Shown here piece by piece: positions 16,821 to 45,353 of a stretch of 64,000 bases of DNA. Origin of the DNA: a virus. The stretch lies in the IMG/VR virus record IMGVR_UViG_3300028384_000673, positions 45,352 to 109,351 of that record; one strand, given 5' to 3'. The first letter of the stretch is position 1, and each line of letters opens with the position of its first letter. The translations under genes and the position numbers were made by a program. The notes beneath the pieces were generated by a model, which was given only the letters and a program-made list of their open reading frames with translations, was not told where the DNA came from and did not search any database.

Positions 16821-17060
16821 ATGGAATTTGAAGAGGTTTACAAAGAACACATGGAGATGATTAGTAAGGCGATTGAAAACCTTGCTAGTCGTATCTCTGT
16901 TGTTGAAGGTGCATTAGGTAAGATGCCTCCACCAGGGGCAGAAATGATTAAATACAAACCAGAAGGGTACGAAGACTATTTGAATATTCGTGAACTGTTT
17001 GATGATTTGTATATGCGGATAAATATGATCGAAGACCGCATCAAAGTCCTAGAACCCTAA
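16821..17060 (+). CDS. Hypothetical protein (79 aa)
   Basis: Clean ORF; the stop overlaps the next ATG. Confidence 0.7.
   Translation: MEFEEVYKEHMEMISKAIENLASRISVVEGALGKMPPPGAEMIKYKPEGYEDYLNIRELFDDLYMRINMIEDRIKVLEP
17018..17025 (+). promoter_or_regulatory. T4-type late promoter
   Basis: GATAAATA (variant of TATAAATA), 35 nt before ATG 17060. Confidence 0.55.
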
Positions 17061-27700: not shown

Positions 27701-30700
27701 CTCGTAGAAGACAAAGTTACTATCTACGGTGCCAACCCAGCTGTATTTAACGGAACTTATGAGGTAACTTCTCGACTTAATGATTTTACCTTCACTTACG
27801 CAATTCCTGTTCCTACTCAGATTGTTCCTGAGGGTAATATTCTTCTGTCGGTTGACTTGAACAGAGGTAAGTCTCAGGTTAATTCTATTAACGACGTTAT
27901 CTCTCTGTTTACGTCAAATATTCAGAACTCTTTCTTTAATAATGATTACGTTTACGTTGCTGCTTCTGGTCTTCCCAACTATAAGGTTGGTCCTTTCGAG
28001 GGTTCTGCTCTAATTCCTGGTAACCAGCGTAAACTGCTCAGATTCCCCAGAGTAGTCAATACTGTCTCAACTAGAACTACGGTCAAACCTAATAACCCGA
28101 TTGGATCCTGGGTTAATGGTGTTGCTGCTTGGGGTTATAAGTCTAAGGACTATGTGACTTTTGGTCCTTTGACTGCAATCGCTATTACCAACAATGGTAT
28201 CGATTATGATGCTGGAAGTAAACCTGCACTGCAAATTTCTGGTGGAGGAGGAACTGGCGCATCAGCATCTGTTACTGTTAACGGATCACTGTTCTCTATT
28301 GATGTCACCAACGAAGGCAGTGGTTATAAGACCCAACCTTTGATCTCTATTGTTGGTGGTGGTGGATCTGGCGCAACCGCACAAGCAGTTGTCACCAACG
28401 GAAGAGTGACTCGTATTCTGGTTGAAAACGCAGGTACTGGATATACTTCTCAACCCACTATTTCTATTACTGGTGGTGATGGTATTGGAGCAACTGCAAC
28501 TGCACAAGTTCGTGGCCCTATCTCTGCGGTCACCTTAACTTCTAAGGGTTCTGGGTATACTTCTACTCCTGAGATCAAACTGAATTCTGGTGAAGGTGCT
28601 CTGGCACAACCTATTGTAATTAACGGTCGTATTGTTTCGATCGCTATCATTAACTCTGGTGAAAACTATACCACTGCACCTACTGTCTACATCAATGGTG
28701 ATGGTTTCGGTGCTCAGGCACAAGCAGTTATTGGAACTCTGGGTGAAGATAAAGGTAAGGTTGTTTCTATCCAAATTACTAATAAAGGTGTTGGATATAC
28801 CCAAGGTAATACCACTATTCGTTTGGAAGCAGTTGGTCAACTTGCTACCTTTGAAGCAAGCGTATTCCAATGGAATAAGAACTTAGAATATGACCTGAAC
28901 AGCAAGTATGACGTTGCTCGTGGTTATGTGTTTACTGGTTTCAATAATCAGTACGGTGGTGAGTATGGTCACATCTCTGACCCCAAAGAACTGCGTTATG
29001 TAGTTGGAGACAACGTTGTTCTCGATCCACAAACTCAAAGATTCCGTGAGATCGGTCAGAACGAAGCACACTCTCCGATTTTGGGTTGGGCATTTGATGG
29101 TAACCCGATTTACGGTCCTTATGGTTATATTGACCCGACTGATCAGAACAGTGGTCTTAGAAGAATGCGTTCTTCTTACAAACTGAAAGATGAGGTTGTA
29201 TATGACATCGATACTAACCCCACTCCCGCTAGAACAGATGGTCCTGCACTTTCGACCTATCCTGCTGGCACTTTCGTCAATGATTATGAATATTCTTTCC
29301 AGAGGGGCGACCTAGATCTATATAACGGTCGTTTCTGTAAGACTCCTGATTATCCCGATGGAACTTACGCATATTTCATCACTATCGATGAATCTGAGAC
29401 GGGTCTGCCTGTATTCCCTTATATCTTGGGTCCTGAGTACAACTCTGTTGTTGATATCTGGAATCTGAGTCAATCTGCTATTCAAGAGAACATTCCTGCC
29501 GACGTTTCTCGTTTCAGAGATCCATATGTGAATGTTGACATCGATATTGACCGTCAACCTAACCAACGCTCTGATGAATTCGTTACTGAGCGAGAAGGTG
29601 ACGTTCTTGTCTTTGAAATCGAAGATACTGATAATGATGGTATCATCAGTCCTTCTGAAATCGCAACTCTCAATGCAATCACCGAAGAAGCGGCATTGCA
29701 GATCTATGATTACTTCCCGAGAGTTTCTGCCGAGTCCAGAGTGGATATTGAGGTCGAAACTACTACTAAATTTGAATCTGCACAGATTGATGGATTTGTG
29801 ATCGAGAATCCTGGTGTTTCTTATCAGGTTAACGACACTCTCTTCTTTGATAACACCGATACTGATGGTTTTGGTGCATCTGCCCAAGTTGAGTCAGTTA
29901 CTGGTCGTCCAATCAGTGCTTATCGTAAGGAAATCATCAATGACCAACCTTATGGCAAAATTACCACTGAAAGTGATCATGAACTGATTGCACAAGACGA
30001 AATTATCGTTACTTCCAAAGTTATTACTGATAATACCAATAAGCGTTTCTACATGTCCGTTGTGACAGGTATTGAGAGTATTACCGTCGATCAGATTGGT
30101 GTTGGTTATAGTGAGGCACTTCCTCCATCTTATGAGATCATTTCTACTCAGGGTCAGGATGTTGAGTTGGATATTAAACTCGATGTCACTACTGGTAAGA
30201 TTGATAAGGTAGAGATCATTAATTCTGGTTTTAATTACTCAACTGATAATGTTCCTCAAATTAGAGTATCTCACCCCCAACAATTTAAGAAGACTTATTA
30301 TTGGGTTAATCAATATGTAGATAGTGGTGTAAATGGTGGCACATTTGAAATTTTTGATATTGCAACTACAAAGGATCGTAGTACTTACGTTTGTGGTGAA
30401 CTTACTCAATCTAATGGCGATACTGCCGCTTTCTTGGCAAAATTCTCAGACTTGGGTAGTCTAGTTTGGGATAGAACTCTTCTGCCTTCTTCTAGCAGAA
30501 AGGTGGCGAGATTCCGTCGTATGTATATTGATGAGACCTCCGAAACCAATCATCTGATTTATGTGGTAGGCGAAAGTGAATCTCAAACTGAATCTGGATA
30601 TAATCCCGATATCTTGGTCGCCAAATATGAATCTGGTCTCAATAATGCTAATAATCCCGAAGGTATCGTAAGATTCCAAAAAGAGATTGCTGGTGTCTCT

Positions 30701-33700
30701 GGTAGTACTCGTCGTGATTATGCTGGTGATATTTACCTGGATGATGAGCAAAGAGTATATCTCTGTGGTTGGACTGATACCAACTCTCCCGATCCTGATG
30801 ATATTTGGGTTATTCAACTTAATAACCAAGGTGATCTGATCGAGAAGCGTAAGTTTGCTTCTGACACCGAAGGTGAACAGATGCACCAACTGTATTACAT
30901 TGGTGATAACAAAGTTATCTTTGCTGGTATTGATCTCGATAACAATGATCTCATGTTTGGTGAGATGTCATATGATGGTGCAAATATTGAATTGAATTAC
31001 GTTAAGAGACTTGCTATTAGTGGTGGTCAGGTACAACGACCTCAGTTTGTTCTCGATTCTTATAATGATCTGTTCTTTGTATGTGATATGTGGAATGGCA
31101 CCAAACACTATGGTGTTGCATTCTTCAAGATTGCAATGTCACAGATCAGATTGACTGCTGCAACCCCTGAATATGAGTTTTCTAAGATTCTCGCTCCTAG
31201 CGTAACATTTGAATCTATTCAACACGCTGGTATCACTCTCGATGAGTTTGATAATGTCAATGTCATCACTCATATCCAGTATGAGGATAACAATCAGCAG
31301 GCAGTTATTAACTACTTTAAGTATGACGGCACTTCCCTTTACAAGTCTAATGTGATTCGTGGTGAGTGGAATACTACTGATAGTGATACTGACTATGGTC
31401 TTGGATTCACTGCATTCCAGCATGGTGTAGATAACTCTGGTGACGTTATTCTTCCTATCAACGTACAGAAATCTGTACAGTCTGCTGTATATCGTTTCAA
31501 CGATGGTGATGACTTGTCATTCGATGCAACTAAGCAAAAGAAGGCATACACTACTACTGGAACTGCTACTAGAAGCACTGCTCAGAAGAAGTTTGGTGCA
31601 TCTTCCCTCGAACTTGCTTCCAACAGTAGTTTGAATTGGCAAGACTTTAATAATGATGAGTGGTCTGTTGTCTTCTGGGCAAGATTGACTGCTGCTCACG
31701 CTTCTACCAATCCTCAAATGGAAATGGTTACTGCTGTTGATGATTCTGGCAGTAAAGTACGATTCATCATCAATGGTGATTCTACTGATGGTAATGACGG
31801 TAAGTGTACTCTTATCATTGATGATGGTAATGGCGGTGGAACCACTGTCCATTCTGTTGGTTCTACTTATTTCTCCACCATGGAGAACGAAGGTTGGCAC
31901 CATATTGCTGTGGTCAAGGAAGAACCCACTCTTGGTTCTTATGTATATTCTGCATTCTTCGATGGAGTACAGGTTTGTACTGCAACTAGAACCGAAGATA
32001 TTGCAATGGACGATCTGACTATTGCTAACAATGTTGGTGCTCCTGCTGCTAATAAGTCATTCAGAGGATTTATTGATGATCTTGTAATTGAAGGTAGAGC
32101 AGTTTATACTGGTGCTTCCCTGACCGTTCCTACTGAGCGTTATAGAATTACTACTAAGAACTCTGGTATGGATCTGGTTAAGTTTGACCGATTGCATAGT
32201 AAGCGTGATGACTATCAGATCGAGACCCAAGGTGTGGTATTCAATGAGAATACTAATCTCAATATCAACACACTGAATAACCCAGTCATTACTGTTTGGA
32301 ATGAAGGTTCTTCTGGTTTGCAGATTCTTGACTACTCCGATGTAGTATCAACTTTGTCTCCTGGAACTTACACTTTCCAAGAGACTGTCACCACCTTTAC
32401 TTCTAAGACCTCTACTATTCCTTCTCCACTTGGTAAGAGACTTCTCATCAGTCCTAACGTGGTGGCAAAGTATTACGTTAGAGATGCTTCTTATTCTAAG
32501 ATTGATAATGTCAAGCAGTTCACCTTTAACCAAAATATCAAGTTCACCAAAGGAACGACTATTGAACAATTTAACGCCCAGGGTGTAACTCAGGCATATG
32601 GCACTATTGTTGAAACTCCTACTGGAACGGTTGATAATCCTGGTTTGGGTAACACTTATAAGATCGGTAAGATCTTTGGTACTTTTAATAATGATGATAG
32701 ATTCAGAAACTCAACTGGTGAAGAGAACACTATTGACGGTCAAGTGTTTGCGGTCAAGCGTTCGCAAGATGAGTGGGTAACAAACAAAGCATATTCTGTG
32801 GGCGATCAGGTTTATAGTGACGGTAAGATATATGCTGCTACTAATAACGCTACTTCTGGTTCAACTGCTCCTGAGCATAGTATCGGCATTGTAACTGATG
32901 GTGCTGTTCTCTGGAACTACATTAGTGCCTCTGGAACGCTGCAAGTTTCGCTCGCTAATTTCCCGTGGCCGAAACCTGTGGAAAACGAATGGGAAACCAA
33001 TCGTTCATATGCTATCAACGACTTTGTATACTTTGGTCGTTATAAGTATCAAGCAACCACTGCTGGTCTTTCTGGTTCTACTAGTCCGACGCACACGAGT
33101 GGTATTGTTAGTGATGGAAATGTCAGTTGGCAGTACATTAGTACATATGATCCACTCTCTGATTACGCACGTTTCCGTCCGTATAGAGAAGAAGATTATA
33201 CTGTTCAGATCATGGAGGTCTACTCCGATTCTGACTTCATCGTTGGTGACGTAGTTTCTCTTGGCGGATCGATTACTGCTGCACCTAATTCGGATAATCC
33301 TAAGATTGCTGATCTTACTGGTTTGAGCAGTGTTAAAGAAATTAAACTCACTGTTAATCTTGATAAGGACATTCTTAGAACTGCTGAGGGTAGATCTGAT
33401 CTCATCTATGCAACTGCTGTCACTCCTCACAACTTTGAGGATGGTGATATCCTGTTCGTTGAAGGATTCTCAACTAACGAGTTTAACGGTTCATTCTTCG
33501 TTAAAGAAGTCTTCTCTTCCAGAGATTTCATCTATACACTTAGAGCAACTGCTTCTCAGGATCCACAATTCGCTCAGGGTGCTATTTCTCGGGTGAAGAT
33601 CTCTTCTAAGCACCCAACTCTACAACTGGTTAGAAATCACTCTTATATCTTTGATATGAGCGATGCTTCTAACTTCGGTTATTACTTATCTTTCTCTGAG

Positions 33701-36700
33701 GATAATCAGTACAAGTTGGAATACTCTTTCAACGTGATTGAACGTGAAGGTACTCCTGGACTCTCTTCTGCTACTGAAATTCCCATCGTCAAGTTTACTA
33801 TTGGTGGAGAAGTTACCAATATTACATATTATTATGATCCGTCTAGAACTGGTGCTACATCTCCTGTGGGAACCAATTCATTCATTGACGTTATCAAGAC
33901 TCCTTTTGATGGTAAGTTTACAATTAGTGAAGTTCTCAGCGATACTGAGTTTAGATTCCCACTGCTACACGAGCCCGAGTTCACTAATGCTGAGATTACT
34001 GAGGATGATAATGATATACCAAGATCGTCTTATTCTACAACTTCACTGAAAGCGATCGGTCCTATCAATACCATTAAACTGATTTCTCCTGGTGGATTCT
34101 ATAAGAAACTACCTGTTATCTCCGATATTGCTTCTGATCGTAAAATTGAAAAAGTTAGAATCACTAATGGTGGTACTGAGTACCAACCTGGTGTCTATAC
34201 TCAGGTGCCTATCTTGGGTGATGGTGAAGGCGGTTTGGTGCAAATCACTGTTGAAAACGATGAAGAGATTGGATCTGGTACTATCACCGATGTTCAACTG
34301 ACCGATCCTGGTAAAGGTTATACTACTGCCTCTATCGACGTTGATGGCATCGAAGGTATTCTTGGTTCAACTCTCTCTGGTTCTGGTGCAGAACTTGAAG
34401 TTGTGATTCCTTCCGAGGGTAGTGGTGCTGCTGTATTCCTCACTGGTAGACAGATCGGTAAGATCAAAACCTTGAAGAACAATGAGTTTGGTTATGGTTA
34501 TTCTCATGACTACACTCTGCGTCCTGAGATTGCATTCCCAATTAACCTGCAACTCTTCAATACCTCTATTCTTTCTCAGATCAAGATCACCAATCCTGGT
34601 TCTGGTTATACTTCTGCTCCTTCTGTCATCATCTCTGGTGGCGGTGGATCTGGTGCTGAGGCAGAAGCAGTTGTTAAGAACAACAGACTGTCTGAGGTTC
34701 TGATCAAAAACCCTGGTGCTGGTTACTCTTCACAACCATCAGTTACTCTGAAATCTGAGTTCACCTATGTTGTAAACCTTGACTTGAACTACTTGCAGTT
34801 CAACTTCCCTCATGGTATTACCACTGGTGCTGAGGTTCAGTTCCGTGCTGATGCTATTGGTTCTACGGTTGGTGTTTTGCCGAAACCCAGTAGCGTTGGT
34901 TTGACCGCTCTGTCTTCTTCTCAGACCTATTATGCTATTGCTGGAAATGCAAATGGTCTGGAAACTGACCAACTTCGTTTCGCACTTACTAGGGTTGACG
35001 CAGAATCTGGTAACTTTATTACCTTCTTGACCCAGGGTGATGGTCGTCAGGTGCTTCTTACCGAAGTGTTTGGTGGTCAAGCAGAAGCAGTGGTTGAGAC
35101 TTCTCGTTTCCTGGAAGGCGAAGAAGTTTTCCAAGGTGAAAGTTATGAATTAGCAAGTGCCTTCGGTGTTGTTTCTGAAAACGATGGATGGCAGATTGAA
35201 CCCAAGATCCTAAAAGTTACTAATCCCAATGGTGACTTTGTTGTGGGTGGTAAGGTGCAGGGTGTTATCTCTCGTGCATCTGGTTTGATTGATAATATCA
35301 ATATTGCTAAGGGTGTGCTCAACATTGATGCTATTACCAAGACTCCTGGTAGATTTATCGATGACGTGGGTAAACCTTCCGAGATCGTTCAAAAGATTCA
35401 AGACTCTTTCTTCTATCAGAACTTCTCGTATGTGGTTAAGTCCAAGATTCCCATCAACAGATGGAAGACTCAGATCTTGGAGAATAACCATCCTGTTGGT
35501 TTCAGCATGTTCGGTCAACTCGAACTGACTGGTGGTAAGGACGTTTCTGGTCGTAAAGTTGACGCTGGTTTCACCAAACAGGTGAACATCAATGAGTATA
35601 CGAACGTTAACCAGATCACCTCCTTTGGTGCTGCTCAACCGATCTACTCAACCTTCAATAACTCCGAAGTTCTCTTCCGTAAGAAGAGACTGACTAACTC
35701 TGAGGAAATTCTAACTTCGATTGTTAAGAAGATTGATGATATTTCTATTCTATTCAATGGTGAACGTAAATCGTTCCCAATGACAGTAGAAGGTGAGAAT
35801 CAAATTGTTAAAGCAAATCAACTGCTGGTCACCCTCAATGGTATAATTCAATCACCTGGTAGTTCTTATCAAGTTGTTGGTAACAATATTATCTTCGCTG
35901 AACCTCCAAAACCCGACTCTAAGATTACTTATAGAAATGTCGAATTTGACATTCTGCCCATTACTCGCCTGAATCTGAATACCATTGGTGGTATCTTCCC
36001 CGAACTAGGTGATACTGTCAACGGTTTTGAATCTGAGGCAAGAGCAAAGGTTGTAGCAACTGGTGCTACTAGCATCGATATTGTTGAGATCACTGGTGGT
36101 CCTTTCCAACTGAATGAGCGTATCGATGTTAGTAGAACTGGATTCAGCGCACTGATTGGTTCTATCGATAACAGTATTACAAAACTGTATCTTGAAAATG
36201 TTGGTGGCACTTTCACTCAGACAGCACTTGGTGGTGTCAGAATCACTGGTCAAACAACTGGTGCTACTGCAACTATCTTCACTGTCAATCCTACTGATGT
36301 AACTGTTGATGTCATTGATATGGCAAATGGTTATTTTGAAAGAGGTGAGGAAATCACATTCTTTGGTCTCCAATATGGTGCTGAAATTCTGAATGTTGAT
36401 AGTGTTAACTATAAGACTATCTTTGAGTTTGGTGAGACTATCTCTAACTTGGATGGTGATAAGGCAATCATTGAAGAGACTAACCAGGATCTGGATGGCA
36501 ACATTTCTGATAAGTTGGTTCTGTCGAAGACTTCTGGTACTGCTGAATATGAAACTGGTGCATATAACGTGCTCCTAAATGATGTTATCTACTCTGCATC
36601 CTCTAATATTGCTGCTAAGATCACTGCAATTTCTCCTTATAGAGATCCTATTGTCAGCATCAACTTGGTTCGTCCTACTAGTGCTGGCGGTGGTTCTTGG

Positions 36701-39700
36701 AGCACCCTGACTGAGGGAACTAAATTCCAAAACCAGACTGGTCTTGCTACGGGTGAAGTCGTCAGAGTGGATATGGATGCATCTCCACCAGTTCTGTACT
36801 ACCTGAAATCCAGTGAGGCAGACATTGCAGAGGATGATGTAATCCAAGAGTATACTTCTGATCCTGTAAATCCTGAGCAAAGAATTCTTGGCACCAAAAC
36901 TGAAACCGTTGCTGGTGAAATTAGATTGGGTGATATTGTTGATACTCTGACTATCAATAAAGGTTCTTCTTTCTTCGGTATAATCTTTGAACGTCTGATT
37001 TCGTTGACTAATGCCAACGTGATTGTTGATGATATTTCTAAGACTACCATTACTCCTACTGAACTTTCCGACGCTGATCAACGTATCAATGCGGACTTCC
37101 TGGATTTTGAACAGGTTCGTTCTACTGAGATTGAGTATGAAAATCTGACTGGCGGTACTATCGCTGCTGATGATGTTCTGCGCTCTATCACGTTTGAGTA
37201 TGGCAACACTGTTACCAACTCTAAGAACAGATGGAAAGATGCTGGTCGTATGATCGGTCTGAACCGTGATGAGATTGTTGATTTTGCTAACGCAGAAATC
37301 GCCGTCGAGCATCCTGGTTTCTACTATCCTGGTGATAACACCACTGATCAGTGGTCCAGATATGCTGATGCTTATCGTCTGATTCAGAAGAACAGAGAGT
37401 ATATCATCGCCAAGGCATATGTCCTGATGACTGCTGAGTATCCTGCTCTTTCTGTTCCTTCGGAAGATAAGTGCAAGCGTGACATTGGTTACTTCATCGA
37501 TGCTCTTTCCTTTGATACTTATTCTGGTGGCACTGTTTATACTCGTAAACTGGCACAGAAGTATTTCTCCACTGATGGAACTCAATTCCTCTATGTAAAT
37601 AACGAAGCAGAAGCGACTGAGTTTGCTTTTGAGAAAGCAACTGAACTCATGCGTCAGGCACTCAGAAATGATCTGGATGGTTCTGAGGTTGTTGGTGGTG
37701 TTACTTACATCTTCTATAACGAGAGAACTACTGGTGGATCTGGTGGTACTGGTATCACTGCTGATCCTTCGCCTGGTAATCCTTATGGCACTGCTGGTTC
37801 CAATGAGCAGAACTATGGAACCAATAACTGCTCTGACGTACAATCTGCGCTGCAAACTCTGTTTGATAACATCTCAGTTATCCTGCTTGCTGGTTCTCTC
37901 GCAGACCTACTTGATGAAGTTACTCCAACTCAATACAGCGCCAATGAAATCAAGTGTCGTCGTGACATCGGTCTGCTGCTTGACGCAATTCAGGCAGATA
38001 TTACTGATGATGGCAACTACAAGACTGTTGAATTTGTCCGCTCCTACTTCGATGCCTCTGGTTCTCCGATCACCAACGGTCTCGTAGGTGAAACTGCTGA
38101 GTCCCTCACTGCATTCAGAAAAGCAGGTGAACTCTGCCGTATGGCAATTAACAACCTACTGTATTCTCAGGTCAATACTAGAACAGCAGAAGCAGGTTAC
38201 ATGCTGAAAGATCCAACTACGTACGCTGGTCCTTACCTGGGTGCAACTGGATCTACTCTGCAAGAGTTTGACGTGTCTAATGCCGTTTACACGCCTGGTA
38301 CTGGCGTGATGGTTCTGACTATCGGTACTCACTCACTGACTACCTCAGATTCTCTGACTATCCGTCCTTACTCTTTGAGATTTACTTGTGCAAGTGATAG
38401 TAATGCATCGTTCCACGATTATCCTCGTACTGGTGATCCTGCATTCAATACTGCTCTGAGTATTACTGCAACTACTGCAACCACAGTTACTGTGAATGTT
38501 GGTGATGCTGGAACTGCATCTGGTCAGGCACACACCTTTATCAGCGCACTGGATAATGCAGTGTTTGTTGGTGGCGGTACTGAGGCAGCATACTATGATC
38601 CAAATTATGCTAGCGGTAGAAACGAAAGCATTCAGCATTGTGCTGATGTTCAGGCAGGAATTCATACCTTGGTTGAAATTGCTGCTACTGCAATCGGTGC
38701 TGGTAACCTCAACAACGTCAATGCTCTTTCCACCATCACCGATGGTACTTATAATGAGAATGAGAACATTCGTGCATTGAAGATTGCATACAAAGATCGT
38801 GCAGGATCTGGATTCTTCATTCCTGGCGATACTCTCAGAGGTTATTCTTCGGGTGCCTCTATGACAGTCAAAGGTGTTAACTCTGGTTTGAAGTGGGTCT
38901 TCACCAACTCAATTACTGGTACTTTCACTGATAGAGAATGGATTACCAACTCTAAACTGACTGCTAATGGCACGATTGGTTTGACCAAGTTAGAGAAGAA
39001 GACAGGTACTCAGTCTCTACACTTCCAAACTCACACTGGTCTGACCCACGCTCTGTCTGATGTTAACAATTTCGGTACTGCCGACTTTACCATTGAGATG
39101 TGGATTCGTCCTTCTACTAACCCTCAGACTGGAATCAAGTATCTGTATGACAGCAGAACTCAGATTGCAACTCTGACTGGTTCTCCTGTTCTGTACTTAG
39201 AAAACAATTCGATTAAGTTCTGGTTGAATGGTACTGATCAGATTTCGGGCGCACATAACATGACAGTTGACACTTGGCATCACGTTGCTGTGTCTAGAAC
39301 TACTGGTATCACTAAGGTTTGGGTTGATGGCGCTCAGGTTGGTGGTGATTATTCTGATAGCAACAACTATCTGGAACGTCCGTTCAGAATCGCAGCGGGT
39401 TGGGATGGTACTAATACCTTCCAAGGTCATATAGACAACCTTTTGATTCATAAAGAATCCTTGTATTCTGCTACGTTTACTCCTGGATCTACTTATCCGA
39501 CGAACACTGCAAATGTGTCTTTCGGTATGAGCATGGAGACTCCAATTATCGTCAGTACCGAAGAGTCTTACGCTAAGTTCACTGGTCAGACCAACTCTGC
39601 TGCCACTGCTAAGAAGGTCAACTATGATGATCGTGAAATCACGATTGAAGATATTGATCTTGCACGTGATGAGCATCGTAAGTGTGCTGACATGCTGGAA

Positions 39701-42700
39701 CTGAACCTCGATTGGATTTCAGAAACTGCTGTTGGTCTTATGGCAGCGAAGTATCCCGACTTCGTAATTCCTGGCGACACTGACACCAGTGAGCAGGGTA
39801 CTAACAAGTGTATTCGTGATACCAAAGAGTACATCCTGAAAGCAATCATCGCTGACATTCGTTACGGTGGTAACTACAACAGCGTGATCTCTGGTAGAGG
39901 ATATCTCACCAAGTCTGGTGGTCTGAACTACGTCGGTAATGAACTGCTGCAATCTGTATATGCTTGGGATGAACTTGCTAATGTGATGAACTTCGTGATC
40001 ACCACTACTAGCACGGATCTTGAAAAGTATCCCGCTACCGATGGTACTAAGTATAGCGACATTCTGCGTATTCCAAACAACTTTACTGCTCCTGCATCTC
40101 AATCAATTCAGGACGAGATCAATGGTCTGTCCAATACGATTATTGATATCCTCTGCCCAACTGGCGATAGATTCCGTGATGGCGGCGATGCTATCTGGAA
40201 AAACCGTGATTACATTGCTGAGGAAGTTGTTGGTTATCTGCAAGATAAGTATCGTGCAACCATCACTGGACCTCTGGGAGAAGAGCGTGAATTTGACTTC
40301 TTGGTTATGCCTGGTTATGGCGAACCCTATTGTGTGCGAGATATCAAGAAGCACATCTTGCCTGCTGTAATCACTGACTTGCTGACTGGCGGTAACTCTT
40401 CTGTTCAGTACGTCATTGATCAATATCTCAATACTGACGATCAAGTTCTTCACGTTGAAGATGAACTTAGTGCAATGTTGGACGCATTTGAGTTTACTAA
40501 GAAACTCTGCCATCATGCGATCAACCAAACTCTGCTGACTAATGGAACCACTGCTTCTGGTCTTGGTATTCCTGCAAATCTTCAAGACGAATACTATGTT
40601 GCCGTCTGGACTGACGAGGAAGCATACAGAGACACCACTGTCACTATTGACCCAGAGGCACCTAATCAGGCTCGCACTGGTCCTAACCATGATCGCCTCA
40701 TGGATGCTGCTGACATGCTGGAACGTAACAAGTATGTGATTGCATGGGAAGCAGTTCACACCATGAACGATATGTCTAAGCATATCGACTTTACGGTCCC
40801 TGGCGGTCGTAAGAACTGCACCGATGATGTGGTCGATCTCATCGAATCCATGGTACATGACCTTCGCATGGGTGGCAATTCCAAGACTTGGGACGCTGCT
40901 GAACTTTATCTAAATGATGAGGATGATACTCTCCTCCACATCGAAGGTGAAGAAGATCAGTCGGTTTGGGTGTTGAAGTGGGCAATGGATATTGCGATCC
41001 TGACCATGCGTAATGGTTTCGGACGTGAGAATCTCTACATCTATCAGGAAGAGAGTGGTATTGATGGTAGCGTTGGTGGCGGTGGTGCTGAATCCTTTGA
41101 TGAGGTTGAAACCAGCAGTTACGAACAAAATGCTGTACGTGACCGCTTCATTGATGCTGCTAATATCATCGAAAGAAACATCCGTTTCATCGCTGAGGAA
41201 GCATTCCATTTGGGTCAAGTGCAGTATCCTTCGCTGGTTATTCCTGGTGGATCTGGCAACTGGGTTCACGATATTACCGACATCTTGGATGCCCTGCAAT
41301 GGAACCTCCGTCATGGTGGTAACAACAAGGTCTTCCATACTGCTGAACTCTATGTGAGTAATAGTGCTCTATCGCACATCTCCTCGCAGGTTGCCGAATC
41401 TACCTGGATCTTTGACAAAGCGATCGAACTTGCTGTTGATGTGATGCAAAATGATACCATCACTGTTGCTGGATCTCATGGATACACTCAGAAGTTCTAC
41501 GCTGATCTGGACTTCGCCCCCTACAACACCAATGATTACTCTATCACTGTTGATGGCGCACCTGACGCAACTCACGGCACTTGTGCTGATGTGAGATCTG
41601 CAATGATGACTTTGATGGATGTTGTGACTGATACGCTTGCAACTCCCGCTAGCATCACTGACGGTACTATCACTAAGAGTCTGCCGAACATCTGGCCTGT
41701 AAAGTATTCCCCCGACATGGTTCATCGTGACCTGTCTGTCACTTACGACACCAGTGCAACTGGTGGTTGGAATACCACTTGCGAGCAGGTTGCTTCTAGC
41801 ATCGAAACTCTCTTCGATCTGGTTATCGACACCATCGAGAAAGCACGTTCTGCAACTCCTTCACCTAATTATTTGACCACTGTTACTAGAACTGGTCCTT
41901 CTACGGGCAACACCAACTACCAGTTGTATACTTGCTACAACGTTGTTGATGCCTCACACACTCTGTTCGATCTGATGATTGAAACTCTGGGTGGTGGATC
42001 ATTCTCCGATCGTACTGCTGCTCGTTATCTCACCTTTAACAAACACGCTATTGTTGATAAGGCATTCACTGAGACTCAGAGTCAGTATCCTGGCACTGCT
42101 GTTACCGAAGACTTTGGTCACAGCATCATGAAGGCAATGATCTATGATCTCAACACTGGTGGTAACGGTGGAATGATGAAACTGGCGAACACTTGGTTCG
42201 ACGGTGAAGGTCAATTTATCGCCTTTGATGGTATTGTCCGTCAGCATCTGTTGTTCTACATGCTGAGACTCTCCGAAGCATCGAAGAGAATCATGTATGA
42301 TCAGAATAATACTGCCGAATGGGGAGTTGATAACAGACATTTCCGTTATCTTGATGACACCCGTATGGATGCCATTGAGTATAGATTCGAGTACGAGCAA
42401 GAGTCCACTGAGTTCCGTCTGGATGCTTCCTGGAACGTTGCTAACTTTGCACTGACTAGATCTCAGACGCCTGCTAACAATAAGGTTACCTGGATTAATA
42501 GCACTGACGCAACTAACCTACAAAACCTTTATGACGAGGGTACTGATTGGAACACTGATCCTGATCTGGTTCTCAACACGCCTAGCGTCGAAGTTGGATT
42601 TGAAAGAAGAGAGAATCGAGTTAAGATTACTCGCCCGAACTTCTATTCTCGTGGAGACGTTCTCACTTACGTGCCCGCATCTAGCGATATTGAAAGTGCA

Positions 42701-45331
42701 TTCTCTGGTCAATCTTGGTTCTATGTGCTAAATGCAACTCCAACTTACTTCGAGATTGCACGAGAAATTCGTCACGACGCACGTTACAGTGACTTTGATG
42801 TTGACACTACAACTACTGGTCAACAGCAGTTTAAGGTTGATGTTCGTTCGGGAATTGTTCGTGAGACAACCACATATGGTGAGCGTGATATCGATACACC
42901 AATTAGTGGTGGATTTAATCTCGCAGATGTAATTGTTGGTAGTAACTCAGATTGTAGTGGTGATGTTATCAGAACTACTAACAATGAAGCAGAAGTTATT
43001 AAACTTTACAAAAAGTTCAACCTTGAAACTGCATCTGCACGATTCACAAATGGTGAACGTGTCAACGTCAGCGGTAATCCCTCTAACTATGGTTTCGTTG
43101 TTCAGACTTCTGTCCTTACGGGCGACAACACTGATGAGGGTTGGGTTTATCTAGAAAATATCACGGGCACTATCTCCGATGGTGATGACCTCGTGGGCGT
43201 AGACAGCAACTCGACTGCAACTGTTGATGGTGTTTCATATGATCGTATGCTGATCAATGTCAGTAGAGGTGCATTTGCTCAGGATCAAATGATCTTCAAT
43301 AAGGGCAATGGTGCTGAGGCAGACATCAAACTTTATGAAAACTCTGCTGGTGCTCTCGTGGGTAACACGGGTGGTCGTATCACGATCGACATTGAGACTT
43401 TACAAGATAACTTTGTGGATGGTGACATTATCTATGGTTCTACTACTGACACTATTATTGATATCGCAGATATCAGAGTTGTGGGTCTGGATCAACTAGA
43501 ACTCAATCAGTACGTGCATGGAACCCGTACCGTTCAAATGCAAATTGCTTCGGTCACTCGTGACCAAGGATTTGAAGGTGACTTCAATCCTGGCGATCTG
43601 GTTTACTTGCTACAAGGCACCATCCCCAAAGAACCTGGTTGGACTGCTGTGGTTTCGGAATATAACTTCGATTCGGAGAATTCCATTCATAATATTTGGT
43701 TGTCTAACTTCCACCCCTATGGTCAGGCAGCAGACGGCACTACAACTATTGATCCAAACCTCGCACAGGGTAGTGCAATCGGTAAGTTTGAAAACCTCAA
43801 CAACTTCCCGATTATCCTTGCTAACATCAGCACCGTCTCGGTAACTAACTACACTTCTTACGGTAGAGTCGCAGGTAAGACTATCAGTGGCAACACTGGT
43901 CGCCTGTGGTTGGCAGATGTCGTGGGCAACTTCCCGAACGGTATGTCGATTATTTCTGACTACGGTTGGAAGGCAGGTGTTACTAAGTCTAAGGATCTCA
44001 TCGGACGTTGTGATCGCTTCTTCCGTGGATTCGATGGAACTGCAACTTCCTTCAAACTCACTGTTAACAACGGCGAAGCATACTTCCCCGATCCCGCTGG
44101 ACACATGCTCGTGTTCGTCAATGGTGTACTGCAACCACCTGGTGGTACTGCTGCTTACACAGCGTTCTCTGACCAGATTCAGTTCACTGAACCTCCGACC
44201 ATTGGTTCTGAATTCATTGGTTACTACGTGGGTAAACTGAGACAACTTGATGATATTTCGTTCGAGTTTGACTCTCTACGTGCATCCTTCAACCTGAAAT
44301 ATGACGGCGGTTTCTATTCTCTGACTCTAACGGATGGTGTTTCTTCTAACACTATCTTGCCTGAGAATAACATCATCGTCTCCCTTAATGGTGTGATTCA
44401 GGAACCTGGCGTTGGTTATACCTTGGTTGGTTCTAGAATCATCTTCGCTGAGATTCCTCGTGCAGGGTCTACATTCGTTGCCTTCTCCTACATCGGTTCT
44501 GACGCTGACGTGATCGCAGCAACTATCGTGCCTCCGATTGAAGCAGGTGATATTCTGCAAATTGAAGGTGAGGCAGACGAACGTGAAGTCGCTCTGATCG
44601 AATCCTCGAACTCTCTGATCACTTTCGAGTACACAGGAACTGTCAAGGGTCGTGGCGCTCAGGCGATTGCGTCTATCAAGTCTGGTGAACTCACCAAGGC
44701 AATCATTACCGCACCTGGTGATGGTTACACTACTCGCCCGAACGTGGATGTTATTTCTTCCTCTGGTTTTGACGGACGTGTACGTGCTCTGATGGGTATT
44801 TCTAGTATCGTTGTGAAGAACAGAGGTATTGGATACGAGCAACCTGTGGTTGACGTTGAAACTACTGTTCCTGATGATTATGTTGCTCCTACTGGCGGCG
44901 CAATCAATGGCGGTTTTGATACCTACGCAGGCGAGGGTACTGATGCTCAGGGTAATCCTATCGTAATCATCCCTGGTTACATCCAGATCACTTCACAACC
45001 TGTGAACGTGACTGTGAACCAAGGTCAGACTGCATCCTTCACTGTCCTTGCTGATTTTATCATCAGTGCGACTAACGAGGAAGGAACAACTGCACTGAAC
45101 TATCAGTGGCAGCGCAAGCAGTATGGCGAAACCAACTGGCAGAACGTAACTGGTTCTACATCTGCAACTTACAACTCTAATGCTGCTGAACAGGCAGACG
45201 ATGGTGATGAGTTCAGAGTAGCAATCACTGCCGCAGGCGCTGAACCTGCTTATTCTAACTCCGTGATTCTTTCGGTTCAGACTGGTGCTACGGTTCTGAC
45301 TGGATTTAGTCCCACTCAGATCTTCCAATAA
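24758..45331 (+). CDS. gp7: Giant (6857 aa) baseplate wedge initiator gp7-like multidomain virion protein
   Basis: Lies between gp6 and gp8. Contains IKDFYISKGT..YLFKILFGE, GSGY spacer repeats, a YHYH-like segment (~29060-29420), a propeller-like repeat region (~30300-31450), two LamG domains (~31600-32110 and ~39010-39485), two CBM5/12-like modules (32771-33139), phycobiliprotein-like repeats (37229-42300) and a C-terminal Ig-like domain. Confidence 0.8.
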   Translation: MFADRINISDRVENQLPEFIREEDQQLVNFLFEYYSSQEKTGRPFNVLNNLLTYLDLDAYDPKVLNSETTLIKDVDPSIDHIEVEQIDGFLPNNGSVMIDNEVIYYSETVRGPDAILTPGISLQEFNKKRQALESPWVEFDGTRTTFDLKFLGTPVSPVSADHLAVTIYGDLLIPDTDYTISGSEITFTTAPRARTGNDQVELTQILYYIGFADATVKELTLPAISELAGQDSMTVQYDNLPYAPIAEIGLIINRNGVLQRPFDDYVLTDNNSKIKFFVNITPQDTFHIRSIEYVSPSVGSGAEAVTRVGINGEIEAITIKNGGSGYKLNFAPKVSIFSSTGIGTGAAARSLVNGIKDVRLINGGQGYSANNPPVVRITEPSDLINGSRAAAKITVDDTTGQVSGIEITNSGSGYDFIPAITFVNPSGGEVSGCQIDSEGRLVVNSITVTKGGLGYSNPPQIYVDPAPEDGINAEVTASVAPDGTLSGVTITNRGRGYTTAPKVRVIQPVGAQVLDVNVANGSVTNINLLTGGKGYTDAPSIYIVDDRKDSAGEFIGGTGATAVATIFNGAITDINITNFGEGYSTTEPPKVYIAEPLSAQASCDVGFGEVTGCVIRSSGEDYEASALRGCARGVSDVVQFDNYGNQVYAKEEQLRQSDHNRGTIVHNLDSTIIRQVFDKFRRQYMPTIDIDYSQVNPIQVIKTIKDFYISKGTKTATQYLFKILFGEEVDVFYPRDELITPSAASWVVDTILRAELISGDPANLPNAELRQFADSVDQNIKDASVLIENVISIIEGTDTIYELTISEETLSGVFKIPYKTVLVEPLDTVENIITVDSTIGWPEKNGTIIIDDQEVIQYKDKSLNQFIECTRSKNGVVEDWDPGTDIFSDIFVYVNRGQDNEVKLRVLGIAEAGTTVLEDSGSYYLPGDKLNVASLGSSDDDERLQSWLYNVKKLIKVTSITPGGSNNQTATVTCSNPHGLLVEDKVTIYGANPAVFNGTYEVTSRLNDFTFTYAIPVPTQIVPEGNILLSVDLNRGKSQVNSINDVISLFTSNIQNSFFNNDYVYVAASGLPNYKVGPFEGSALIPGNQRKLLRFPRVVNTVSTRTTVKPNNPIGSWVNGVAAWGYKSKDYVTFGPLTAIAITNNGIDYDAGSKPALQISGGGGTGASASVTVNGSLFSIDVTNEGSGYKTQPLISIVGGGGSGATAQAVVTNGRVTRILVENAGTGYTSQPTISITGGDGIGATATAQVRGPISAVTLTSKGSGYTSTPEIKLNSGEGALAQPIVINGRIVSIAIINSGENYTTAPTVYINGDGFGAQAQAVIGTLGEDKGKVVSIQITNKGVGYTQGNTTIRLEAVGQLATFEASVFQWNKNLEYDLNSKYDVARGYVFTGFNNQYGGEYGHISDPKELRYVVGDNVVLDPQTQRFREIGQNEAHSPILGWAFDGNPIYGPYGYIDPTDQNSGLRRMRSSYKLKDEVVYDIDTNPTPARTDGPALSTYPAGTFVNDYEYSFQRGDLDLYNGRFCKTPDYPDGTYAYFITIDESETGLPVFPYILGPEYNSVVDIWNLSQSAIQENIPADVSRFRDPYVNVDIDIDRQPNQRSDEFVTEREGDVLVFEIEDTDNDGIISPSEIATLNAITEEAALQIYDYFPRVSAESRVDIEVETTTKFESAQIDGFVIENPGVSYQVNDTLFFDNTDTDGFGASAQVESVTGRPISAYRKEIINDQPYGKITTESDHELIAQDEIIVTSKVITDNTNKRFYMSVVTGIESITVDQIGVGYSEALPPSYEIISTQGQDVELDIKLDVTTGKIDKVEIINSGFNYSTDNVPQIRVSHPQQFKKTYYWVNQYVDSGVNGGTFEIFDIATTKDRSTYVCGELTQSNGDTAAFLAKFSDLGSLVWDRTLLPSSSRKVARFRRMYIDETSETNHLIYVVGESESQTESGYNPDILVAKYESGLNNANNPEGIVRFQKEIAGVSGSTRRDYAGDIYLDDEQRVYLCGWTDTNSPDPDDIWVIQLNNQGDLIEKRKFASDTEGEQMHQLYYIGDNKVIFAGIDLDNNDLMFGEMSYDGANIELNYVKRLAISGGQVQRPQFVLDSYNDLFFVCDMWNGTKHYGVAFFKIAMSQIRLTAATPEYEFSKILAPSVTFESIQHAGITLDEFDNVNVITHIQYEDNNQQAVINYFKYDGTSLYKSNVIRGEWNTTDSDTDYGLGFTAFQHGVDNSGDVILPINVQKSVQSAVYRFNDGDDLSFDATKQKKAYTTTGTATRSTAQKKFGASSLELASNSSLNWQDFNNDEWSVVFWARLTAAHASTNPQMEMVTAVDDSGSKVRFIINGDSTDGNDGKCTLIIDDGNGGGTTVHSVGSTYFSTMENEGWHHIAVVKEEPTLGSYVYSAFFDGVQVCTATRTEDIAMDDLTIANNVGAPAANKSFRGFIDDLVIEGRAVYTGASLTVPTERYRITTKNSGMDLVKFDRLHSKRDDYQIETQGVVFNENTNLNINTLNNPVITVWNEGSSGLQILDYSDVVSTLSPGTYTFQETVTTFTSKTSTIPSPLGKRLLISPNVVAKYYVRDASYSKIDNVKQFTFNQNIKFTKGTTIEQFNAQGVTQAYGTIVETPTGTVDNPGLGNTYKIGKIFGTFNNDDRFRNSTGEENTIDGQVFAVKRSQDEWVTNKAYSVGDQVYSDGKIYAATNNATSGSTAPEHSIGIVTDGAVLWNYISASGTLQVSLANFPWPKPVENEWETNRSYAINDFVYFGRYKYQATTAGLSGSTSPTHTSGIVSDGNVSWQYISTYDPLSDYARFRPYREEDYTVQIMEVYSDSDFIVGDVVSLGGSITAAPNSDNPKIADLTGLSSVKEIKLTVNLDKDILRTAEGRSDLIYATAVTPHNFEDGDILFVEGFSTNEFNGSFFVKEVFSSRDFIYTLRATASQDPQFAQGAISRVKISSKHPTLQLVRNHSYIFDMSDASNFGYYLSFSEDNQYKLEYSFNVIEREGTPGLSSATEIPIVKFTIGGEVTNITYYYDPSRTGATSPVGTNSFIDVIKTPFDGKFTISEVLSDTEFRFPLLHEPEFTNAEITEDDNDIPRSSYSTTSLKAIGPINTIKLISPGGFYKKLPVISDIASDRKIEKVRITNGGTEYQPGVYTQVPILGDGEGGLVQITVENDEEIGSGTITDVQLTDPGKGYTTASIDVDGIEGILGSTLSGSGAELEVVIPSEGSGAAVFLTGRQIGKIKTLKNNEFGYGYSHDYTLRPEIAFPINLQLFNTSILSQIKITNPGSGYTSAPSVIISGGGGSGAEAEAVVKNNRLSEVLIKNPGAGYSSQPSVTLKSEFTYVVNLDLNYLQFNFPHGITTGAEVQFRADAIGSTVGVLPKPSSVGLTALSSSQTYYAIAGNANGLETDQLRFALTRVDAESGNFITFLTQGDGRQVLLTEVFGGQAEAVVETSRFLEGEEVFQGESYELASAFGVVSENDGWQIEPKILKVTNPNGDFVVGGKVQGVISRASGLIDNINIAKGVLNIDAITKTPGRFIDDVGKPSEIVQKIQDSFFYQNFSYVVKSKIPINRWKTQILENNHPVGFSMFGQLELTGGKDVSGRKVDAGFTKQVNINEYTNVNQITSFGAAQPIYSTFNNSEVLFRKKRLTNSEEILTSIVKKIDDISILFNGERKSFPMTVEGENQIVKANQLLVTLNGIIQSPGSSYQVVGNNIIFAEPPKPDSKITYRNVEFDILPITRLNLNTIGGIFPELGDTVNGFESEARAKVVATGATSIDIVEITGGPFQLNERIDVSRTGFSALIGSIDNSITKLYLENVGGTFTQTALGGVRITGQTTGATATIFTVNPTDVTVDVIDMANGYFERGEEITFFGLQYGAEILNVDSVNYKTIFEFGETISNLDGDKAIIEETNQDLDGNISDKLVLSKTSGTAEYETGAYNVLLNDVIYSASSNIAAKITAISPYRDPIVSINLVRPTSAGGGSWSTLTEGTKFQNQTGLATGEVVRVDMDASPPVLYYLKSSEADIAEDDVIQEYTSDPVNPEQRILGTKTETVAGEIRLGDIVDTLTINKGSSFFGIIFERLISLTNANVIVDDISKTTITPTELSDADQRINADFLDFEQVRSTEIEYENLTGGTIAADDVLRSITFEYGNTVTNSKNRWKDAGRMIGLNRDEIVDFANAEIAVEHPGFYYPGDNTTDQWSRYADAYRLIQKNREYIIAKAYVLMTAEYPALSVPSEDKCKRDIGYFIDALSFDTYSGGTVYTRKLAQKYFSTDGTQFLYVNNEAEATEFAFEKATELMRQALRNDLDGSEVVGGVTYIFYNERTTGGSGGTGITADPSPGNPYGTAGSNEQNYGTNNCSDVQSALQTLFDNISVILLAGSLADLLDEVTPTQYSANEIKCRRDIGLLLDAIQADITDDGNYKTVEFVRSYFDASGSPITNGLVGETAESLTAFRKAGELCRMAINNLLYSQVNTRTAEAGYMLKDPTTYAGPYLGATGSTLQEFDVSNAVYTPGTGVMVLTIGTHSLTTSDSLTIRPYSLRFTCASDSNASFHDYPRTGDPAFNTALSITATTATTVTVNVGDAGTASGQAHTFISALDNAVFVGGGTEAAYYDPNYASGRNESIQHCADVQAGIHTLVEIAATAIGAGNLNNVNALSTITDGTYNENENIRALKIAYKDRAGSGFFIPGDTLRGYSSGASMTVKGVNSGLKWVFTNSITGTFTDREWITNSKLTANGTIGLTKLEKKTGTQSLHFQTHTGLTHALSDVNNFGTADFTIEMWIRPSTNPQTGIKYLYDSRTQIATLTGSPVLYLENNSIKFWLNGTDQISGAHNMTVDTWHHVAVSRTTGITKVWVDGAQVGGDYSDSNNYLERPFRIAAGWDGTNTFQGHIDNLLIHKESLYSATFTPGSTYPTNTANVSFGMSMETPIIVSTEESYAKFTGQTNSAATAKKVNYDDREITIEDIDLARDEHRKCADMLELNLDWISETAVGLMAAKYPDFVIPGDTDTSEQGTNKCIRDTKEYILKAIIADIRYGGNYNSVISGRGYLTKSGGLNYVGNELLQSVYAWDELANVMNFVITTTSTDLEKYPATDGTKYSDILRIPNNFTAPASQSIQDEINGLSNTIIDILCPTGDRFRDGGDAIWKNRDYIAEEVVGYLQDKYRATITGPLGEEREFDFLVMPGYGEPYCVRDIKKHILPAVITDLLTGGNSSVQYVIDQYLNTDDQVLHVEDELSAMLDAFEFTKKLCHHAINQTLLTNGTTASGLGIPANLQDEYYVAVWTDEEAYRDTTVTIDPEAPNQARTGPNHDRLMDAADMLERNKYVIAWEAVHTMNDMSKHIDFTVPGGRKNCTDDVVDLIESMVHDLRMGGNSKTWDAAELYLNDEDDTLLHIEGEEDQSVWVLKWAMDIAILTMRNGFGRENLYIYQEESGIDGSVGGGGAESFDEVETSSYEQNAVRDRFIDAANIIERNIRFIAEEAFHLGQVQYPSLVIPGGSGNWVHDITDILDALQWNLRHGGNNKVFHTAELYVSNSALSHISSQVAESTWIFDKAIELAVDVMQNDTITVAGSHGYTQKFYADLDFAPYNTNDYSITVDGAPDATHGTCADVRSAMMTLMDVVTDTLATPASITDGTITKSLPNIWPVKYSPDMVHRDLSVTYDTSATGGWNTTCEQVASSIETLFDLVIDTIEKARSATPSPNYLTTVTRTGPSTGNTNYQLYTCYNVVDASHTLFDLMIETLGGGSFSDRTAARYLTFNKHAIVDKAFTETQSQYPGTAVTEDFGHSIMKAMIYDLNTGGNGGMMKLANTWFDGEGQFIAFDGIVRQHLLFYMLRLSEASKRIMYDQNNTAEWGVDNRHFRYLDDTRMDAIEYRFEYEQESTEFRLDASWNVANFALTRSQTPANNKVTWINSTDATNLQNLYDEGTDWNTDPDLVLNTPSVEVGFERRENRVKITRPNFYSRGDVLTYVPASSDIESAFSGQSWFYVLNATPTYFEIAREIRHDARYSDFDVDTTTTGQQQFKVDVRSGIVRETTTYGERDIDTPISGGFNLADVIVGSNSDCSGDVIRTTNNEAEVIKLYKKFNLETASARFTNGERVNVSGNPSNYGFVVQTSVLTGDNTDEGWVYLENITGTISDGDDLVGVDSNSTATVDGVSYDRMLINVSRGAFAQDQMIFNKGNGAEADIKLYENSAGALVGNTGGRITIDIETLQDNFVDGDIIYGSTTDTIIDIADIRVVGLDQLELNQYVHGTRTVQMQIASVTRDQGFEGDFNPGDLVYLLQGTIPKEPGWTAVVSEYNFDSENSIHNIWLSNFHPYGQAADGTTTIDPNLAQGSAIGKFENLNNFPIILANISTVSVTNYTSYGRVAGKTISGNTGRLWLADVVGNFPNGMSIISDYGWKAGVTKSKDLIGRCDRFFRGFDGTATSFKLTVNNGEAYFPDPAGHMLVFVNGVLQPPGGTAAYTAFSDQIQFTEPPTIGSEFIGYYVGKLRQLDDISFEFDSLRASFNLKYDGGFYSLTLTDGVSSNTILPENNIIVSLNGVIQEPGVGYTLVGSRIIFAEIPRAGSTFVAFSYIGSDADVIAATIVPPIEAGDILQIEGEADEREVALIESSNSLITFEYTGTVKGRGAQAIASIKSGELTKAIITAPGDGYTTRPNVDVISSSGFDGRVRALMGISSIVVKNRGIGYEQPVVDVETTVPDDYVAPTGGAINGGFDTYAGEGTDAQGNPIVIIPGYIQITSQPVNVTVNQGQTASFTVLADFIISATNEEGTTALNYQWQRKQYGETNWQNVTGSTSATYNSNAAEQADDGDEFRVAITAAGAEPAYSNSVILSVQTGATVLTGFSPTQIFQ

Positions 45332-45334: not shown

Positions 45335-45353
45335 GTAAAAAAGTCCGAATCAA

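Follow-up and report, generated by a model that had tools for sequence, protein, structure and literature searches.

Phycobiliproteins are, to our knowledge, known solely as intracellular antenna proteins, and the locus described here raises the question of why a protein of a virus particle should contain a row of domains bearing what resembles their bilin attachment site. The locus is found in a 64,000-nucleotide stretch of DNA (positions 45,352 to 109,351 of IMG/VR record IMGVR_UViG_3300028384_000673; hereafter the window), which is part of a 111.5-kb virus record with an estimated completeness of about 60%. In the window, an open reading frame (ORF) of 6857 amino acids (24758..45331, + strand) occupies the gp7 position, that of the "baseplate wedge initiator" of a T4-like cyanomyovirus, as judged from PHROG virion and baseplate families and from the annotation of its orthologues. 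A first-pass annotation, made from the nucleotide sequence alone, had noticed about seven helical repeats in this protein, several with a Cys-x-Arg-Asp motif, and had read them as phycobiliprotein homologues built into the virion that may carry bilins. The results from MAFFT and HMMER analyses bear out the repeat count, with seven full repeats (R1–R7) of ~130–170 residues each at residues 4195–5880 and a half repeat at residues 4157–4194, and every motif string quoted in that annotation was found at its position, including the two Cys-less copies.

Homology of the repeats to phycobiliproteins

The phycobiliprotein profile PF00502 matches the C-terminal half of the 6857-residue protein with 36.2 bits, and the single repeats R1 and R3 with 22.4 and 18.9 bits, respectively, the curated cut-off being 22.2 bits and the match spanning only profile positions 31–97 of 155. 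By profile score the protein belongs to the family, at or above this cut-off. Against all PDB sequences, one repeat retrieves phycobiliproteins only, weakly (best E value 0.013), a profile of the seven repeats reaches an E value of 3.4e-6, and a family profile built from 68 sequences identifies C-phycocyanin alpha with an E value of 5e-8. The alignment with the family profile covers residues 38–104 of phycocyanin alpha, i.e., helix B, the loop and helix E, and places the repeat Cys on Cys-84; the register with Cys-84, Arg-86 and Asp-87 of the phycobiliproteins is exact. The likeness of R1 (reading KCKRDIGYFIDALSFDTYSGGT) to phycocyanin alpha, which the first-pass annotation had noted, holds against the PDB entry 1jbo_A, in which the spacing to the GGT is identical. 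By sequence the nearest proteins are the alpha chains of C-phycocyanin and phycoerythrin (1jbo_A, 2vjr_A, 5aqd_A), while by fold the beta chains are nearest to R3 (7ssf_F, 6hrn_B).

The predicted fold, whose comparison with phycobiliproteins had been proposed as a check, leads to the same family. In a Foldseek search with the model of R1 (predicted local distance difference test 81), the top 50 matches are exclusively phycobiliproteins or engineered biliproteins, and the best target-normalised template modelling score in that list, 0.63 with a root-mean-square deviation of 3.4 Å, belongs to the engineered protein BDFP (6hrk_A). The model contains the phycobiliprotein-type globin helices B, E, F, G and H and no N-terminal X-Y helical hairpin, the structural alignments beginning at about phycobiliprotein residue 20–33. 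As all of the top 50 matches are of this kind, the modelled repeats are best described as complete phycobiliprotein globin cores from which the X-Y hairpin alone is absent. A three-repeat model gave a predicted template modelling score of 0.60, the stretches between the tandem copies R3–R6 are about 20–25 residues long, and a search of the AlphaFold DB clusters returned a single weak phycocyanin row. An accidental likeness, in which an unrelated four-helix repeat would have acquired C-x-R-D by chance, is effectively refuted by the family-profile alignment with phycocyanin alpha and by the structural alignments, and we give it hardly any weight. The domains at residues 4195–5880 are almost certainly phycobiliprotein homologues.

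Repeats and phycobiliproteins have in common the globin-type core (helices B through H), the K-C-x-R-D sequence at Cys-84 and the distance from it to the G-G-T/N turn at the end of helix E. They differ in the missing X-Y hairpin and a shorter F region, in the fusion of 7–35 copies per polypeptide with lectin-like and beta-rich inserts, in their location in an extracellular virus particle instead of the phycobilisome, and in their chromophore, which is putative. An (alpha-beta)3 disc assembly of the phycobilisome type is implausible for such a fused extracellular repeat. The core-membrane linker ApcE (4xxi_A) differs as well, since it contains a single domain of this kind with linker repeats after it, and serves energy transfer inside the phycobilisome. 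BDFP (6hrk_A) and smURFP (6fzn/6fzo), which are truncated and derived from allophycocyanin, have a similar X-Y-less globin core of about 135 residues; unlike the phage domains they are engineered to bind biliverdin or phycocyanobilin and are not natural repeats. No lyase is needed for their covalent attachment of bilin.

Location of the repeats in the virion

The proposal that the 6857-residue protein is a virion baseplate protein is supported by its gene context and by the virion proteome of a relative. The ORF stands in a T4-like baseplate module with the order PAAR-like protein, gp6-type wedge protein, 6857-residue ORF and further wedge genes; the gene upstream is gp6-like, with a match to PHROG 219 (baseplate wedge), and the genes downstream also match wedge families. 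The direct match to a gp7-type Pfam model is weak (PF23786, E value 0.003), and the assignment as a T4 gp7-type wedge protein follows from the place of the gene, with gp6 on one side and the remaining wedge genes on the other, together with the presence of the S-SZBM1 orthologue in the virion. Its orthologues bear the annotation gp7 or baseplate wedge initiator, the latter in the nearest isolates, Synechococcus phages S-SZBM1 and S-WAM1. The S-SZBM1 orthologue, which is 62% identical across the repeat region, is a 6619-residue "baseplate wedge initiator" that was detected with 71 peptides in the proteome of CsCl-purified virions (PMC9146016). As the first-pass annotation had supposed, we found no earlier description of phycobiliprotein-like virion domains in the literature, beyond faint automatic Pfam matches, which suggests that the multiplication of the phycobiliprotein fold in virion baseplate and fibre proteins, an unexpected finding given the strong constraint on the attachment site, is undescribed.

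Arrangement of the repeats and of a second Cys motif

All features of the repeat region lie on the + strand. The half repeat (37226..37339; residues 4157–4194) is an extra helix-B-like hairpin that precedes R1, matches positions 4–41 only of the hidden Markov model (HMM), and has helices (6–35) of low confidence in the predicted model. R1 (37340..37735; residues 4195–4326) contains K-C-K-R-D followed by GGT, with Cys 4239 at position 37472, and R2 (37817..38224; residues 4354–4489) contains K-C-R-R-D, with Cys 4400 at 37955. A non-helical insert between R2 and R3 includes a Concanavalin-A-like lectin domain (Laminin_G_3; PF13385, 66.7 bits) at residues 4766–4902 (39053..39463). R3 (39656..40156; residues 4967–5133 including the C-terminal helix H) has K-C-I-R-D with Cys 5018 at 39809, R4 (40160..40609; residues 5135–5284) has Y-C-V-R-D with Cys 5192 at 40331, and R5 (40676..41065; residues 5307–5436) has N-C-T-D-D, i.e., Asp for Arg, with Cys 5354 at 40817. 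R6 (41132..41551; residues 5459–5598) is Cys-less and reads W-V-H-D at about 41261. In most orthologues R6 is split by about 100 residues inserted between helix B and helix E, such that HMM positions 3–41 and 28–137 match separately; it is unsplit in the window and in four orthologues. After a helical spacer (41558..41992; residues 5601–5745), which contains three short Cys-capped helices (Cys 5609, 5675 and 5726) and for which a PDB sequence search gave no match, follows the degenerate R7 (41993..42397; residues 5746–5880), which keeps D...GGN and reads E-D-F-G at about 42125.

A second short motif, a helix starting with Cys, has the consensus C-(A/S)-D-V-x-S-A-x-x-T-L-(F/M)-D. The five Cys-capped helices are found at window positions 37829, 38639, 41582, 41780 and 41933 (Cys 4358, 4628, 5609, 5675 and 5726), and a Cys-less copy after R3, at about 40109, is modelled as phycobiliprotein helix H. 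The motif may resemble the region around Cys-155 of beta-phycocyanin, where T-type lyases act, a likeness which the PDB search does not support. Its reading as a Cys-155-like site for CpeT found no support: the search gave no sequence match to a phycobiliprotein in the PDB, and few family linkers (50 of 630) contain such a Cys.

Conservation of the attachment site

The motif C-x-R-D is complete in R1–R4, is C-x-D-D in R5, and is absent from R7. Five instances of the pattern C-x-[RD]-D were counted in the 6857-residue protein, all within residues 4239–5354; the composition of the protein predicts 0.23 occurrences, and at least five were obtained in none of 2000 shuffles. Across 22–24 orthologous giant proteins from IMG/VR (50–75% identical), the Cys is invariant in R1–R5. 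In R6 it is lost in the window phage alone, where Trp takes its place, and all 22 orthologues read C-V-H/Q-D, while in R7 both Cys and Arg are absent from every orthologue. A search of 1.84 billion representative proteins with the family profile yielded 1285 proteins at an E value of 1e-3 or lower, 860 of them at 1e-10 or lower, often giants with up to 35 copies each. Conservation was counted over 1246 copies from the best 150 of these proteins, which are giant and metagenomic. The mean identity between copies from different proteins is 30%, and Cys, Arg(+2) and Asp(+3) are conserved at 97%, 93% and 99%, respectively; near-invariance extends to the Asp at +14, the Tyr at +30 and the GGN turn. 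Cys-84 is the sole bilin site common to all phycobiliproteins (PMC2327270). That the three residues are kept to this degree despite such divergence is the strongest argument that the Cys-x-Arg-Asp site may still be functional in some way.

The best single explanation of this constraint would be that the domains carry a covalently bound bilin in the virion. While the homology proposed in the earlier interpretation stands, this second part of it remains a proposal, for which we see about even chances. The alternative to be taken most seriously, possible and yet the less probable of the two, is a pigment-free building block, in which the fold would have been amplified for stacking into rods or rings and Cys, Arg and Asp would be kept for folding or inter-domain packing. 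The pattern of conservation argues against it, as a free Cys is seldom kept at 97% over 1246 copies with 30% identity in an extracellular protein, and the residues kept are exactly the triad that contacts the chromophore in phycobiliproteins. R1 and R5, moreover, have no second Cys in the domain, which excludes an intradomain disulfide there. The site might instead bind another ligand or a metal, bind bilin but not covalently, or cross-link subunits by disulfide or thioether bonds and so lock the periphery of the baseplate. Nothing observed points positively to another ligand, the exact register with Cys-84, Arg-86 and Asp-87 speaks against it, and we consider this group of explanations quite improbable.

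Distribution among phages

A tblastn search with R1 against 50,697 phage records matched 154, all of them cyanophages. With the family profile, the domain was found in 14 of 17 marine cyanomyoviruses, namely S-RSM4 (16 copies), S-PM2 (13), Syn1 (10), P-HM1 and P-HM2 (6 each), S-ShM2 (5), P-SSM4, P-SSM7 and P-RSM4 (4 each), and Syn9, Syn19, Syn33, S-SSM5 and S-SM1 (3 each). The same profile detected no repeats in the cyanomyoviruses P-SSM2, S-SM2 and S-SSM7, nor in the cyanopodoviruses P-SSP7 and Syn5, the siphovirus P-SS2, T4 or the Pelagibacter phage HTVC008M. Among cultured phages, the repeat family was found in cyanomyoviruses only. Single-domain relatives of 70–220 residues were sought, and only fragments of giant proteins were found. 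The repeat-bearing genes have at least three architectures: gp7-type wedge proteins (the window and P-HM1); the giant "short tail fiber" protein (T4-GC734) of S-PM2, S-RSM4 and Syn1; and, in metagenomic contigs, a gene preceded by one with a faint Phage-Gp8 Pfam match and by a DUF4815 giant. Repeat-bearing fragments are also filed at NCBI under a "Candidatus Nanopelagicaceae bacterium" metagenome-assembled genome, on contigs of 2–5.5 kb. These are probably phage DNA that was binned with an actinobacterium; if they are not, the repeat domain would reach beyond cyanophages.

Bilin-related genes and lyases

The genes cpeT, ho1, pebS and pcyA occur in the same cyanophages as the repeats. Sullivan et al. 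2010 (PMC3037559) describe the role of the bilin synthesis genes pcyA and pebS in phages as "a mystery" and the role of phage cpeT as "unresolved". In the record studied here, a CpeT-like ORF of 162 residues (PF06206, 38.5 bits summed) is located outside the window, at record positions 27885–28373, and no heme oxygenase or bilin reductase was found on the 111-kb genome fragment. The CpeT-like ORF overlaps the end of a 201-residue ORF which, by its position, may be a 2-oxoglutarate (2OG)-Fe(II) oxygenase. The predicted complex of R1 with this CpeT-like protein scored 0.02, which counts neither way.

In one clade, that of S-PM2, S-RSM4 and Syn1, cpeT adjoins the repeat-rich fibre gene, 0.7–1.5 kb upstream of it on the same strand. 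The shared order is a small hypothetical gene, cpeT, transfer RNA genes, a 2OG-Fe(II) oxygenase or HNH endonuclease, and the giant "short tail fiber" gene with 6–11 repeats; it ends with a short tail fibre gene, which Syn1 has under the label gp12. In S-PM2 and Syn1, cpeT and a 2OG oxygenase form the same pair ahead of that giant gene. On one metagenomic contig, a gene with 22 repeats has heme oxygenase and CpeT genes 4.3 kb upstream of it. Among the 17 myoviruses, cpeT was found in 12 of the 14 genomes with repeats, and in no genome without them. P-SSM7 is probably a thirteenth carrier, according to the column order in Table 3 of Sullivan et al. 2010 (PMC3037559); our own cpeT search in it gave sub-threshold candidates only.

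Arguments against a bound bilin

A number of observations weigh against pigment binding, and several of them favour the pigment-free building block. The gp6 tree unites the three myoviruses that have neither repeats nor cpeT in one clade (99/99), and the cpeT-adjacent S-PM2, Syn1 and S-RSM4 in another (100/100). Co-occurrence and synteny therefore represent about one evolutionary event each, and the co-occurrence of cpeT was set aside as independent evidence, as the tree counts it as no more than one event. Across the 17 myoviruses the repeats show no covariation with ho1 or pebS/pcyA: P-SSM2 and S-SSM7 have ho1 and pebS without repeats, and most repeat-bearing phages are without both, for which reason the bilin synthesis genes were dropped as a link. 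T-type lyases (CpcT/CpeT) are specific for Cys-155 and not for Cys-84 (PMC2327270). An S-type lyase was found in none of the 17 myoviruses, none of which encodes a lyase of the Cys-84 type. Conversely, cluster-C cyanophages and S-CBWM1 encode an S-type lyase (PMC10665884), yet no repeats were found in them, and a link between this lyase and the repeats was set aside.

The protein itself provides further points of this kind. In the window, R6 and R7 are without Cys and R5 has Asp in place of Arg, and this degeneration of R5–R7 is evidently tolerated. The domains belong to structural proteins, in which they stand beside lectin-like and beta-rich modules, and in the literature consulted we found no report of coloured, fluorescent or otherwise pigmented cyanophage particles.

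Proposed origin and use of the domains

We infer that the repeats were captured from a host gene for an alpha-type phycocyanin or phycoerythrin and were then amplified. If they do bind a bilin, the intact copies would be chromophorylated inside the infected cell with phycoerythrobilin or phycocyanobilin, supplied by the host or, where present, by the phage ho1, pebS or pcyA products. The bilin would be linked to the conserved Cys by a thioether, and its contacts would be those known from phycobiliproteins, with the pyrrole nitrogens held by the Asp and a propionate by the Arg. The attachment might be autocatalytic, as in ApcE, or might employ a host S-type lyase or the phage CpeT-like protein, and the mature virion would then carry pigment on the periphery of its baseplate.

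The most attractive use for such a pigment would be a virion-borne light sensor that gates adsorption. It has been reported that no adsorption of P-HM1 or P-HM2 takes place in darkness, that P-SSM2 adsorbs in the dark, less than in the light, that P-SSP7 adsorbs in the dark, and that the light-dependent adsorption of S-PM2 is independent of host photosynthesis (Liu et al. 2019, PMC6628666). The repeat counts fit these phenotypes perfectly, with 6 in both P-HM1 and P-HM2 and 13 in S-PM2, and none in P-SSM2 or P-SSP7; against this, the correlation rests on about two independent positive lineages. Gating of light-dependent adsorption by the repeats is an attractive extension of the bilin proposal that we nevertheless hold to be unlikely. 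The same low expectation applies to the full model, according to which the cyanomyovirus particle would be a biliprotein, with bilin on baseplate and short-fibre domains, matured by the CpeT-like protein and/or host lyases, and acting as the photoreceptor for light-only adsorption.

Other features of the giant protein and its surroundings

The N-terminal half of the 6857-residue protein includes a YHYH domain (PF14240, 102 bits) at residues 1398–1545 (28949–29392), and a weak match to CBM_5_12 is found at residues 2672–2700. Two further large ORFs of the baseplate region are without the repeat. The first (17060–21244; 1394 residues) matches PHROG 22792, labelled "unknown function", and also the baseplate wedge family PHROG 719, and the second (51922–59361; 2479 residues) matches PHROG 358, labelled "unknown function".

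Implications

With these domains two open questions become testable, namely why cyanophages carry cpeT, and how some cyanomyoviruses can restrict adsorption to the light without a part for host photosynthesis. If the photoreceptor reading were true, it would explain both the light-dependent, photosynthesis-independent adsorption of S-PM2, P-HM1 and P-HM2 and the presence of cpeT in cyanophages. If a pigment is bound, these phages would represent the first light-absorbing, and possibly light-sensing, virus particle, as well as a source of small X-Y-less biliprotein modules for engineering. If it is not bound, they would still be a clear example of phages that have made a structural material of the virion out of a host antenna protein.

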